Virus record (IMG/VR): IMGVR_UViG_3300049564_000015
Location: 1-42,789 of that record
Length of the DNA stretch: 42,789 nucleotides
Direction: 5' to 3' (one strand)
Source of the DNA: a virus
Lineage: Duplodnaviria > Caudoviricetes
Of the stretch, positions 9,254 to 17,460 are shown in pieces (positions within the stretch are counted from its first letter, which is position 1; each line of letters begins with the position of its first letter). The notes beneath the pieces were generated by a model. That model did not search any database. It had not been told where the DNA came from and saw only the letters and a program-made list of their open reading frames with translations. Position numbers and translations under genes: made by a program.

Positions 9254-10363
9254 CTATGCGTCGGCCGGCGCGGACGAGAAGATCACCATCGAGCCGTTAT
9301 CGACGGGTTTCGTGGTGTCCACCGTCGGGTCGGTGCCGAAGCGCAGCTTCTGCACGCCCCTGATCTCCTCAACGCCCGTTCCCTGGAAGAATCCATAGTC
9401 GCGGCTGTTGGTGATCACCTTCGTCCGCTGTGCCCAGGCGATGCCGATGGCCTGCGCGCCGGCCAGATACGATGCCGCAACGTCGGAAGGACCGCCGCCG
9501 ACGCCTGCCAGCACCGGCAACTCGGGGATTTCACGGATAATCATCCCGTCGTAGATGATGTCGCCGGCGGTGAACAACGGATTGTCGCTGCCCCTGTTCC
9601 ACGCATACTGCAAGGCGTTGATAATCACCGGATCGAGCATCAGGTCGCGGAAGCAGAGGCTCGGCACGAACACGACGTACCATTCCTCGTCGTTGTTCAG
9701 CCTGATGGGCCGGATTTTCGGCGTTGCCGTGCGCGCGATGCGCTTGGCCAGCGTGAGCTGTGCGGCAGACATCTTGCCGGTCGCCGGGGTGATAGTGGCC
9801 AGGGCGGTTGCCATGACACCCGACACCGCGTTGCTCTTGGACGCGCCGAACAACACACGATCGGCGTTGTTGACCATCCAGTAGTTGCGCTGTGCTGCGG
9901 TTGCGGCGGCGTAGGACAGCACGACGTTGTTGTCGGCCGTGATCGAGCCGAACGCGCTGATGATGTCGGAGCGCAGCTTGTTGGCGGCCCAGTTCTTCAG
10001 CACCGAGCGTGCGCCCTGGAGCAGATCGATGACCGATTTCTGCTCGTCCCAGTCGGATACCGCGACCGCGTGGCGGATGACGCCGACGGTAACGTTGAGG
10101 CTCCTGGCGTTGAGGATCTCTTCGTTGCCCTCCAGGACCACGTTGCCGGTTACGCCGGCACCCACCAAGTTACGGATGGTTGGGAAGACAACAGTGTCGC
10201 CGGGTTTCCTAGTAAGATCCAGTTGCAACTGGATCATCGCATCCATACTTGTCCCAAAATATGGAGTAAACTGGTTTTCTCTGAGATATTCGACCCAGAA
10301 ATCACTTTGCCACTGGATCGGCGTTAGTCCGGGTCTACTCGGAGTTACGTTCATGTCGGCCAT
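9254..10363 (-). CDS. Major capsid protein, N4-gp56/DUF4043-like
   Basis: 369 aa; DLTRKPGDTVVFP, GNVVLEGNEE, NPLFTAGDIIYDGMIIRE, DYGF..G motifs; follows scaffold; AGGAG RBS. Confidence 0.88.
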   Translation of the reverse strand: MADMNVTPSRPGLTPIQWQSDFWVEYLRENQFTPYFGTSMDAMIQLQLDLTRKPGDTVVFPTIRNLVGAGVTGNVVLEGNEEILNARSLNVTVGVIRHAVAVSDWDEQKSVIDLLQGARSVLKNWAANKLRSDIISAFGSITADNNVVLSYAAATAAQRNYWMVNNADRVLFGASKSNAVSGVMATALATITPATGKMSAAQLTLAKRIARTATPKIRPIRLNNDEEWYVVFVPSLCFRDLMLDPVIINALQYAWNRGSDNPLFTAGDIIYDGMIIREIPELPVLAGVGGGPSDVAASYLAGAQAIGIAWAQRTKVITNSRDYGFFQGTGVEEIRGVQKLRFGTDPTVDTTKPVDNGSMVIFSSAPADA

Positions 10364-10500
10364 CGCCGAGCACTCCTATACTAGCTTTCTCCTTTCATTT
10401 GATCGCGCCCGTTATGCTCGGCGGCAGCCACTGCGCCCGTTTCGGTCGGCGGCACCTGGGTAGGCACTTGCGCCCGTTAACCCCGGCGGCGGGTAGGCAC
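10358..10500 (-). promoter_or_regulatory. Structured capsid-gene leader: three GCCGCCG-N5-AACGGGCGC hairpin repeats plus a helix covering the start codon
   Basis: Plus-strand GCGCCCGTT-N5-CGGCGGC at 10405-10425, 10433-10453 and 10470-10490; 10364-10372 is the exact reverse complement of 10415-10423. Confidence 0.7.
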
Positions 10501-10501
10501 G

Positions 10502-11332
10502 TCAGAACCGGCGGAACTGCCCGTTCGCCGACCGTCGATTCTGCACTGGAGCCAACACGTCCTCGAGCGACGGCTCGCCGGTCCAGGTCGATGCTGTGCG
10601 TCCCGCGACGCTGCGCGCGGTGGCGAGCGACGGCTGCATGTTGGCGGCGGGTGATGGTGGAGGTGCTGCTTTCGCCTCGGCCTCCCACTTGGCGCGGGCT
10701 TCGGCCTCGATGCGTGCGCGGTAGGCTGACGGGTCGTCGCCGACCTCGCGGAGATGCCGGAGCCGGTCCACCTCGCGCGTCATCCAGGCGTAGGGATTGG
10801 TTTGGCTGTAGAGCTTGCCGAACAACGTCTGATCGCGGGCGGCGAGCTGCTTGAACTCGGCGACGTACTCGTTGAGCTTGTCGTCGCCTATCTTCTCGCG
10901 GATGCGTTCCTCAGAGTTGTTCAGCCGCTCGTTGAGCAGCACCTGCTGCAGCCGCGCAGTGAAGCCCACCGGATCCTGCGCCGGATCGATCGGCTGCAGT
11001 GGCGGCATCTGCTCGGGTTGTGGCTGGCGGGCCTCCTCCTGCTGGCGCTTGTAGGCCGCGAGTTCGCCTTCGAGGCGCGCCGCCTTCTCTTTCCAGTCCT
11101 GGCGCTTGCGTCGCTCGTCCTCGTAGGCACGGCGCGGGATGACCGGCTCGCCGTCCAGCGGTTGCGGCGGCTCTGCGTCGTCCTCAGGGGGCTTGGACTC
11201 TGGTGCCGCCTTGGGTTCAGCCTTCGTCTCCGGCGCCTCCTGGCGTGGCTCTGGGGCCTCGCGCGGGGTTGGTTCCACTGTTGCCGCCTGCGCCTCGGAC
11301 GCAAGGAAGCTGTCGAGTTGCTCGTTAGCCAT
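10502..11332 (-). CDS. Capsid scaffolding protein
   Basis: Acidic/Pro-rich N-terminus, VIPRRAYEDERRKRQ coiled coil, PSLA motif near C-terminus; between portal and capsid. Confidence 0.85.
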   Translation of the reverse strand: MANEQLDSFLASEAQAATVEPTPREAPEPRQEAPETKAEPKAAPESKPPEDDAEPPQPLDGEPVIPRRAYEDERRKRQDWKEKAARLEGELAAYKRQQEEARQPQPEQMPPLQPIDPAQDPVGFTARLQQVLLNERLNNSEERIREKIGDDKLNEYVAEFKQLAARDQTLFGKLYSQTNPYAWMTREVDRLRHLREVGDDPSAYRARIEAEARAKWEAEAKAAPPPSPAANMQPSLATARSVAGRTASTWTGEPSLEDVLAPVQNRRSANGQFRRF

Positions 11333-11422: not shown

Positions 11423-11605
11423 ATGGATGAAATACTTAAGACCCTGGCTACGCTCAGCACCAACGTCTCTGTGCTGAACTGGGCGGTCGGCATTCTCGCT
11501 GCCCTGCTCATCGCCCTGCTGACTGTCATGCTCAACATCAGTCACCAGCTTGGCCGCACCAACGGCGCGCTGGACGTTCTCATCCAGCATGTCCAGATGA
11601 AGTGA
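11423..11605 (+). CDS. Small single-TM membrane protein
   Basis: AGGAGG RBS; hydrophobic WAVGILAALLIALLTVML. Confidence 0.7.
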   Translation: MDEILKTLATLSTNVSVLNWAVGILAALLIALLTVMLNISHQLGRTNGALDVLIQHVQMK

Positions 11606-12114
11606 TGGAAATCTGGAAACGGGTCGTTGGAAACGACGATTACGAGGTCAGCAGCCTTGGTCGCGTGAAGCGTATCACCACGGCTATGGGCGCAACTGCC
11701 GGGCGCATACTTAGGCCGGCTCTAGGCAGTCACGGGTATCTCGGCGTCCATCTTGGCAGGCACAACGGACACCTGATCCACAGACTGATGGCCCAGGCGT
11801 TCCTGCCGCCAATCTCCGGCCGCACCCACGTGAACCACATCAACGGCATCAAAACCGACAACCGGATCGAAAACATCGAGTGGTCGAACAAGAGCCTCAA
11901 TCAGCTTCATGCCATGGAACTCGGCCTTTACGCGGGACCGCCGCTCAAGCAAGGGGCTTCCCAAGGCAACGCCAAGCTGACCGATGACAATGTGCGCCAG
12001 ATCCGAGCAATGCGGGCGGCTGGCGTCCACTACATCAAAATTGCCCAGGAGTTCGGCGTCTCCCAATCGCTCGCCTTCTATGTCTGCAAGACGGGTTGGA
12101 AGCACGTCACGTAG
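11605..12114 (+). CDS. NUMOD4-HNH homing endonuclease with C-terminal HTH
   Basis: MEIWK...YEVSSLGRVK (NUMOD4); HRLMAQAF, VNHINGIKTDNRIENIEW (HNH); NAKLT..NVRQIR. Confidence 0.92.
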   Translation: MEIWKRVVGNDDYEVSSLGRVKRITTAMGATAGRILRPALGSHGYLGVHLGRHNGHLIHRLMAQAFLPPISGRTHVNHINGIKTDNRIENIEWSNKSLNQLHAMELGLYAGPPLKQGASQGNAKLTDDNVRQIRAMRAAGVHYIKIAQEFGVSQSLAFYVCKTGWKHVT

Positions 12115-15982: not shown

Positions 15983-16011
15983 TTGACATCCTGCCCACAC
16001 GTTGGCATAAT
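15983..16011 (+). promoter_or_regulatory. Sigma70 promoter of inverted two-gene cassette
   Basis: TTGACA-17 nt-CATAAT with TGCC-N8-GGCA imperfect palindrome; AGGAG RBS downstream. Confidence 0.75.
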
Positions 16012-16035
16012 GCCTACATAGACAGGAGACGACAG

Positions 16036-16305
16036 ATGGCCAACATTCTCTACTTCACCGGCACTGAGCAGCTTACCAAGCCCCACCACGACGGCAGCAT
16101 CTACACCAGCGCAAAGCATTTCACCGGCCTGAACAGCCTCGGCGTCCGCGTTGCGGTTGAGCGCGCGATCGAGCGCAAGTCTTTCCCGTCCAACCACAAG
16201 TGTGACGCTCGCTGCCTGAACGCTACCGGCTTCAAGTGTGAATGCGCTTGCGGCGGAAAGAACCACGGCGCTGGCAACTTTTCCTGCGAAGCGGTGGCGG
16301 CATGA
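16036..16305 (+). CDS. Cys/His-rich putative zinc-binding protein
   Basis: HKCDARCLNATGFKCECACGGKNHG; promoter and RBS upstream. Confidence 0.8.
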   Translation: MANILYFTGTEQLTKPHHDGSIYTSAKHFTGLNSLGVRVAVERAIERKSFPSNHKCDARCLNATGFKCECACGGKNHGAGNFSCEAVAA

Positions 16306-16839: not shown

Positions 16840-17460
16840 TTATTCTCGCGCCACGAGACAATCCACATTGACCGTAACGTCTCTGACGTGTCCGAACAGC
16901 ATGAGCGCGACGTGAGCGGTGGAGCGTGTCACTGAGACGACGACGCCTGGGTGCTCGCGGAACGGCCCCGTGGCGAGGCTGCAGGGGGTGCCAGGAGCCC
17001 ATGGAACGTCGGCGAGTATCCCACTAGCGGCCAGGGCCTCGGCCGCCTGTAGCGCTTCCACAAGGCCCCTAGCGACGTGGCTTGGAATCTGGTCGGCATT
17101 GGTGAGCAGTTTGAACACTCCTGGGGCGTAGCGAATTGGCCACCACGGATCACGCAGGTCGAGGCGAATGAACAGATACGACGGGAAAAGCGGCACCTGG
17201 ACGCGATGGAACATCGACTGGATCGCACGATCGCGACGGCGGACGAACGTGAGCGGCAGGTATGTTTCGTAGCCCTTCTGGGCGAGGCTCTCAGCGGCGC
17301 GGCGCTCGGCTTGCGGATATGACGCGATGACGAACCAGCGCGGGCCTGGACGGCATCCGCTAGGCGTGGGGGCCACAACGCGGGCTGGCCCCGTATCCTG
17401 TTGGCGGGCAATTAAGCAACTGGTTGGTTGCGTGTCAACGCTGGTGATGGCGTTCACCAC
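16840..17460 (-). CDS. NusG/RfaH-family transcription antiterminator
   Basis: RWFVIAS, GYETYLP, PLFPSYLFI (NGN); GPFREHPGVV...LMLFG (KOW). Confidence 0.88.
   Translation of the reverse strand: MVNAITSVDTQPTSCLIARQQDTGPARVVAPTPSGCRPGPRWFVIASYPQAERRAAESLAQKGYETYLPLTFVRRRDRAIQSMFHRVQVPLFPSYLFIRLDLRDPWWPIRYAPGVFKLLTNADQIPSHVARGLVEALQAAEALAASGILADVPWAPGTPCSLATGPFREHPGVVVSVTRSTAHVALMLFGHVRDVTVNVDCLVARE

Follow-up and report, generated by a model that had tools for sequence, protein, structure and literature searches.

The window, by which we mean the whole 42,789-base virus record that was analyzed, encodes in order on its minus strand terminase, a P22-like portal (PF16510), a 276-aa protein and a PF13252 major capsid protein. 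The 276-aa gene is assigned as the scaffold gene by its position between portal and capsid and by alignment with the scaffold annotated in Pam5 (E 1e-16; 278 columns, 28% identity). The scaffold stop lies just before an array of three repeats, and the 138-nt gap from this stop to the capsid start is filled by the array and a predicted helix over the start. The features of the region are listed below; P1 and P2 denote the two stems of the fold predicted for each repeat, and OFF the state in which the capsid start is buried.

9254..10363, minus strand: major capsid protein gene, 369 aa (PF13252, phrog_334)
10356..10369, minus strand: local 5-bp hairpin with the AUG in a 4-nt loop, from the constrained fold with unit 3 folded
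10358..10373, minus strand: 3' arm of the OFF helix (last G of the Shine-Dalgarno (SD) sequence, SD-AUG spacer, AUG, codon 2)
10373..10377, minus strand: capsid SD, AGGAG
10381..10398, minus strand: mini-ORF MKGES*
10389..10394, minus strand: orphan SD-like AAGGAG in the OFF helix loop
10406..10428, minus strand: unit 3 (last); P1 GCU/AGC, loop 10425-10419, tail 10411-10406
10414..10429, minus strand: 5' arm of the OFF helix, taking both P1 strands and the loop of unit 3
10434..10456, minus strand: unit 2; P1 GGU/ACC, loop 10453-10447, tail 10439-10434
10471..10494, minus strand: unit 1; P1 (A)CCC/GGG(U), loop GCCGCCG 10490-10484, tail CGGGCG 10476-10471
10500-10491 and 10467-10458, minus strand: two copies of GUGCCUACCC, in which GUGCCU is able to pair with the tails of units 1 and 2, replacing P2
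10502..11332, minus strand: scaffold protein gene, 276 aa, between the P22-like portal and the capsid, similar to the Pam5 scaffold

Elsewhere in the window, the interval from portal to scaffold carries, in antisense orientation, a 60-aa ORF and an HNH/NUMOD4 gene (11423-12114, plus strand), the latter overlapping the portal stop; a NusG paralogue (16840-17460, minus strand) stands directly upstream of a small gene at the terminase position, and is common to 15 of 20 records of the clade to which the window belongs; and a near-consensus sigma-70 promoter-like site (11/12) precedes a small antisense ORF between the terminase genes (15983-16305, plus strand). A promoter and terminator scan of the window found nothing near the array. 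Near relatives of the capsid protein include Acetobacteraceae-labelled assemblies among others.

The initial annotation had described three GCCGCCG-N5-AACGGGCG hairpins, each with a 7-nt loop ending in AA. The repeats are indeed exact, at 10490-10471, 10453-10434 and 10425-10406 (minus strand), and one further match in the window carries two mismatches (chance mean 0.69 for up to two mismatches); a model search of the whole window returned only these three units as strong copies, with unit 1, itself in the training set of model R1, scoring 34.9 bits. The plain hairpin did not stand: its stem is P2, one half of a predicted H-type pseudoknot, and what had been taken for loops is the 3' strand of P1, which was overlooked, plus a linker. 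In the predicted layout of this 25-nt element, which covariation supports, a variable P1 of 3-5 bp closes a GNCGCCG loop, and this loop pairs with a CGGGCG tail to give P2. Within P2, CGCC is matched by GGCG, and one more pair, beyond a bulged G, joins the final base of the loop to the base that opens the tail; at three loci this bulge is missing and P2 consists of five unbroken pairs. P1 and P2 are predicted to form at once. In ViennaRNA, which treats nested structures only, the folds are no more stable than those of shuffles for the whole region (z +0.59) and give z +2.04 against shuffles for the repeats alone. A single bulged hairpin per unit was rejected, as it is not the predicted fold of single units and 37 of 146 aligned rows lack its outer G pair. 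The sequence GTGCCTACCC does precede two of the units, as had been noted, abutting unit 1 at 10500-10491 and lying 4 nt before the unit 2 loop at 10467-10458, and the pairing of GUGCCU with the tails in place of P2 appears in minimum-energy folds.

Covariation and distribution of the repeat unit

In the upstream regions of related phages the three bases on each side of GNCGCCG vary yet stay complementary, and the window itself holds three different triplets (CCC/GGG, GGU/ACC and GCU/AGC). Among 98 distinct pattern hits, picked regardless of their flanks, 48 have at least three flanking pairs, with 18 triplet types, compared with 8.8 +/- 2.6 in shuffles (maximum 18 in 2000 shuffles); the remaining hits look like chance matches. 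Positions 1, 2 and 3 of P1 are Watson-Crick in 105, 121 and 118 of 141 leader cores chosen without regard to P1. For P2, 31 of 209 units have changed once in the loop and once in the tail, 28 of these at partner positions, where the Watson-Crick pair is restored in 19 cases and not in 9.

Alignment A2 consists of 145 of 164 distinct units (the first 147, less two that were likely noise) plus the window's three. It has two-sided changes in eight of nine pairs, including four of the five P2 pairs, and the true register pairs at 93% against 28-53% for slid controls. Part of the P1 pairing in A2 comes from the way units were selected, and relatives contribute more than one count, which makes the flank-blind hits and the 141-core set the cleaner tests of P1. 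In A2 the initial G of the loop and the GG of the tail never vary, though the finder had demanded them. On the sense strand G-U exceeds A-C at P1 positions 1 and 3 (24 vs 6), and over four positions (42 vs 25). Compensatory changes back both stems of the H-type pseudoknot, and the comparison supports the view that the repeats are a structured RNA under selection, on the sense strand only.

The distribution of the units was assessed in 217 distinct capsid loci; a two-unit pattern scan proved too loose (approximately 120,000 stretches), and loci from it were excluded. Within 200 nt upstream of the capsid start these loci have 281 units, and a further 105 lie at -1000 to -700, with 2 antisense units in the two bins; the strand-independent conservation that, according to the initial annotation, would favor DNA sites is not seen. 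Arrays are mostly of two to four units, on the sense strand, before the capsid or the scaffold gene and rarely both: among 172 loci with enough flank, units occur on the capsid side only in 72, in the scaffold window only in 60, in both in 8 and in neither in 32. Four of the 60 were reassigned as capsid-side arrays moved approximately 600 nt upstream by an antisense HNH-like gene, the scaffold being located in one and inferred for three. The scaffold gene was placed in 65 window-clade loci, and in 4 of these it, too, is preceded by a unit; the leader of the window's own scaffold gene has none by pattern and model search. This either/or pattern mostly reflects two clades and not independent events.

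Strong model matches form one cluster in nearly every genome. Two units precede the scaffold gene in the cultured phages Pam1, Pam5 and Pan3 and in CBW1004C-Prop1, and no unit was found in P22 (by pattern and model), RHph_Y1_10, KLEP18-1 or KPP25; in a nucleotide search of cultured phages, the Pan3 and Pam1 leaders were the only ones above chance level. Units are also found before scaffolds associated with PF25209 and PF11651 capsids, giving three capsid Pfam families in all. On the scaffold side the last unit ends 11-44 nt before the start (at 11-18 nt in 26 of 53), compared with 34-75 nt in window-clade capsid leaders and 42 nt before the capsid AUG in the window; the 30S footprint reaches about 20 nt upstream of a start codon.

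Several other observations were made in these loci. Antisense HNH-like genes occur in the scaffold-capsid gap downstream of the array (L066, L073, L076, L464) or upstream of it (L068, L348, L430, L432, L468). Five unit-less head-gene leaders (L203 from RHph_Y1_10, L207 from KPP25, L372, L514, L521) have other possible small H-type pseudoknots, with a 3-bp CGC/GCG stem and a loop pairing 4-6 nt downstream, which may point to a sister family. In the Pam clade, 12 of 61 loci (L200, L496, L497, L511, L512, L530 and L564 among them) have a terminator-like hairpin with a U run in the scaffold-capsid gap, on the downstream side of the array, an odd position before the gene for the most abundant protein. 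In several relatives (L025, L051, L079, L441, L444, L453, L455) the capsid gene seems to start with ATC, not ATG or GTG, and a conserved second in-frame Met a few codons downstream may be the true start. Capsid matches span 270-530 extra bases in L018, L048, L051, L052, L449, L453 and L454, which suggests introns or other insertions.

Predicted pairing of the last unit with the capsid start

The initial annotation had proposed that the last repeat overlaps one strand of a helix of 15 in 16 pairs, 9 of them contiguous Watson-Crick, that runs from the end of the AGGAG over the capsid AUG. This helix (10429-10414 with 10373-10358) was confirmed with the same pair counts, the last G alone of AGGAG being paired, and it is the minimum-energy fold of 10432-10355 (-29.8 kcal/mol, z -3.34; 1 of 200 shuffles as good). 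The fold of unit 3 and the helix at the ribosome site share nucleotides 10429-10414 and are mutually exclusive, as had been claimed. When both states were folded, as the initial annotation recommended, the constrained ON fold placed the AUG in the loop of the local hairpin; opening of the ribosome site costs 17.0 kcal/mol with the earlier units only folded and 12.8 with all folded (ON). The OFF state lies at -30.1 kcal/mol, against -14.3 plus the small pseudoknot, and if the pseudoknot is put at -5 to -8 kcal/mol the OFF state would, as a rough estimate, be about 8-10 kcal/mol lower. Simple equilibrium switching would not bridge a gap of this size, and control would have to be kinetic.

Coupling between units and start sites was analyzed in 28 clusters comprising 85 capsid leaders, after one of the original 86 had been discarded as noise. 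In 21 of these clusters the last unit finds a better partner in its own ribosome site than in the sites of other clusters (p 0.006), whereas earlier units do so in 13 of 27 (p 0.55); the paired contrast of last against earlier units gives p 3e-5. Three pairing registers exist among relatives. In the window clade the SD-AUG spacer is the partner of the loop and the P1 3' strand. In clade B the partner is the SD with the bases upstream of it, which pair with the linker, tail and 3' flank (z -4.13 in L478), and in clade C this same stretch pairs with the P1 hairpin as a whole (z -3.80 in L030). Conservation in clade C is concentrated in the partner strand (0.92, vs 0.51 for the free SD-start spacer). 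Folding of the last unit gains at least 3 kcal/mol in only 9 of the 28 capsid-leader clusters, and scaffold leaders show no anti-start coupling (4 of 57, mean z +0.24).

The covariation sought across related spacers was found in part: both stems of the unit covary, whereas the OFF helix has no two-sided change in the 21 window-clade rows, its counts equalling those of shuffles. Elsewhere the competing helix has two-sided changes at one SD pair in clade C and at none in clade B. Among the 21 members of the window clade, conservation is 0.76-1.0 in the spacer and 0.76 in the loop; the local AUG hairpin, in which the spacer pairs with codons 2-3, could be a rival reason for the conservation of the spacer.

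The capsid SD is present in all 21 clade rows, and a second AGGAG, mostly without a start codon at normal spacing, in 18. A mini-ORF had been pointed out in the helix loop, and it does lie at 10398-10381 in the window; its ATG is kept in only 4 of the 21 members, it is probably incidental, and control by a leader peptide (uORF) was rejected on this count.

Candidate functions of the array

Sequence comparison shows three things: the two stems of the unit, its place before head genes and the competing helix. The repeats are very probably a genuine phage RNA element, and apparently an uncatalogued one. Rfam 15 has no match in the window at the gathering score, and nothing under E 10 covers the array, the best matches being unrelated snoRNA models, which agrees with the initial annotation in recognizing no named RNA family. 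No description of the motif was found in the literature; the supplementary alignments of PMC10690425 (Fremin 2023), with 10,006 candidates, may hold a match, and the accessible portions of PMC5737381, PMC9382816 and 10.64898/2026.09.22.753630 make no mention of it.

That the array forms part of a translational switch, specific to certain lineages, is probable. The complete reading we favor only tentatively and with less than even confidence: the last unit would compete with the start helix, and a bound protein, possibly unassembled scaffold, would hold the leader open. Unit 3, transcribed about 30 nt ahead of the rival strand, could fold first; the downstream strand would then invade through the linker and bury the capsid start. 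A ligand that stabilizes the pseudoknot would keep the start usable, with ligand and ribosome capturing the open state. The weakest step is the ligand itself. Free scaffold is a possibility in which we place limited confidence; it is favored because of the P22 precedent, the restriction of units to scaffold and capsid leaders, and the ability of both layouts to correct a scaffold excess. Where the array sits tight against the scaffold SD, as in relatives, the same binding would repress scaffold synthesis, and both layouts would raise capsid relative to scaffold under scaffold excess. The wider proposition, that P22-like phages share a widespread, uncatalogued scaffold-sensing RNA module in which one pseudoknot aptamer is wired as a repressor at the scaffold SD in certain lineages and, once relocated in front of the capsid gene, as an activator, with platforms evolved at least three times, seems to us unlikely.

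Some observations count against the favored reading. Among them are the scarcity of two-sided changes in the start helices, the rival local hairpin, the small share of clusters that gain from folding the last unit, the size of the OFF/ON gap and the 12.8 kcal/mol still needed to open the site in the ON state. In four related loci the antisense HNH-like gene puts approximately 600 nt between an intact array and the capsid start. The scaffold genes that follow units go with capsids of three Pfam families, and unit-less phages, too, have scaffolds with the same basic helix. This short helix (ER-x-KRQ-like) recurs in otherwise dissimilar scaffolds (L107, L116, L131, L145, L147, L204, L205 from P22, and that of the window at 10502-11332) and is a candidate RNA-binding segment. 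The basic motif is associated with units (70/128 vs 9/30, p 0.025), and since several of the scaffold calls are wrong ORFs this association is not relied on. The NusG paralogue, which had also been put forward as ligand, occurs in 16 of 37 records, 15 of 20 from the window clade and 1 of 17 with scaffold arrays; its absence from 16 of the 17 excludes it as a general ligand, and it may be a helper in the window clade.

Function without any phage ligand is doubtful: the pseudoknots would recruit 30S or bS1 as a standby site, or would time folding, and ribosomes would reach the buried start from the array, or only on nascent RNA. Consistent with this, the unit sequence is kept across unrelated capsid families and hosts, the spacer between the last unit and the SD is A-rich and G-poor (A 0.32, G 0.19, vs 0.21 and 0.30 in the capsid gene), and 18 of 21 clade members have the orphan AGGAG within the helix loop; a 5' pseudoknot is required for bS1/30S standby at the sequestered site of tisB, according to the accessible part of PMC7708055, and the large OFF/ON gap fits a folding timer. 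A pure enhancer, however, gives no reason for evolving, three times, a strand that destroys the last unit, and a host-general enhancer should also turn up at further strong genes, whereas the matches form a single cluster in nearly every genome.

It is rather improbable that the array is an mRNA stabilizer or processing landmark, which would protect the 5' end of the scaffold/capsid message so that the high-copy head proteins outnumber portal and terminase, and to which the anti-start helix would be a clade-level addition or a by-product. The array is always upstream of the capsid gene, directly or via the scaffold, and persists approximately 600 nt from the start in the four loci with HNH-like insertions; a terminator-like hairpin lies within 90 nt before 11 of 53 scaffold arrays, the switch is missing in two thirds of the capsid-leader clusters, and T4 gene 32 transcripts, with their leader pseudoknot, are the most stable T4 mRNAs according to the part of PMC3014915 available to us. 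Stabilization nevertheless leaves unexplained both the near-fixed P2 sequence beside a free P1 and the pairing specific to the last unit, and no paper on phage exonuclease-blocking pseudoknots with RNase J came up in a literature search.

An action on transcription, as a put-like nascent-RNA antiterminator or as a loading site for the NusG paralogue, which could in the window clade also recruit ribosomes to the buried start, is very improbable. The paralogue is present in the window and in 15 of 20 records of its clade, and 12 of 61 Pam-clade loci have the terminator-like hairpin beyond their array; the paralogue occurs, however, in only 1 of 17 scaffold-array records, in none of Pam1, Pam5, Pan3 and CBW1004C-Prop1, and is missing from three window-clade records at least 93% complete, while no promoter-like site is found near the array and some terminators lie upstream of it. 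Hardly credible is that the repeats are DNA sites (promoter or packaging boxes), with which their fixed orientation alone would be compatible, or an array of small-molecule aptamers, for which tandem units and a variable platform on the last make a riboswitch-like layout, since two crossing stems covary with a preference for G-U over A-C on the sense strand, needless for a duplex site, and the array has no Rfam riboswitch match and precedes structural genes.

The capsid:scaffold ratio in phages with one late transcript is poorly explained, and we know of no defined RNA target for the autoregulation of P22 scaffold. If the element responds to a protein, it would be the second phage pseudoknot operator after that of T4 gene 32 and the first that would activate; if it senses scaffold, capsid would be made only when free scaffold is present to shape it. 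Natural variants with and without the competing helix, together with the carriers Pam1, Pam5 and Pan3 in culture, make the question directly testable.

Comparison with known systems

The preQ1-I and SAM-II translational riboswitches have H-type pseudoknot aptamers, and the array recalls their layout in its conserved small pseudoknot, tandem copies and variable expression platform; unlike them, it has no Rfam match and precedes structural, not metabolic, genes.

Translational autoregulation by the P22 scaffold (gene 8) was reportedly described by Wyckoff and Casjens in 1985. The N-terminus of this protein is "implicated in translational autoregulation" (10.1101/2022.12.13.520362, in the portion accessible to us). 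The window shares with P22, as far as such partial sources describe it, the portal-scaffold-coat order, a P22-like portal and, in the proposed reading, post-transcriptional control of the head-protein ratio, and gp8 has the short basic helix. P22 differs in having a portal-scaffold gap of 13 nt and no unit by pattern or model, which sets the element apart from a gene 8 site; in the window the element precedes the capsid gene.

The tisB mRNA likewise combines an upstream pseudoknot with a ribosome site buried in a stable helix (PMC7708055, in part). There, in a toxin mRNA, pseudoknot and sequestering helix coexist, whereas in the window, in a phage head mRNA, they share nucleotides and exclude each other.

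The T4/T2 gene 32 operator, a leader pseudoknot and possibly the only viral example of such autoregulation according to the accessible text of the review PMC3014915, is likewise an H-type pseudoknot in a phage leader, tens of nucleotides before the start, for which protein-dependent control is proposed. It differs, on the same partial account, in being one pseudoknot, in repressing by cooperative coating of an unstructured A+U tract and in belonging to a gene for a ssDNA-binding protein; the window has tandem G+C-rich units at head genes and a competing helix that implies activation, with a capsid gene downstream and a ribosome site that is predicted to be structured. As far as these partly accessible sources allow the comparison, the element would be closest in its action to the T4 gene 32 operator, with a likeness to the tisB standby system, and it is a member of neither.
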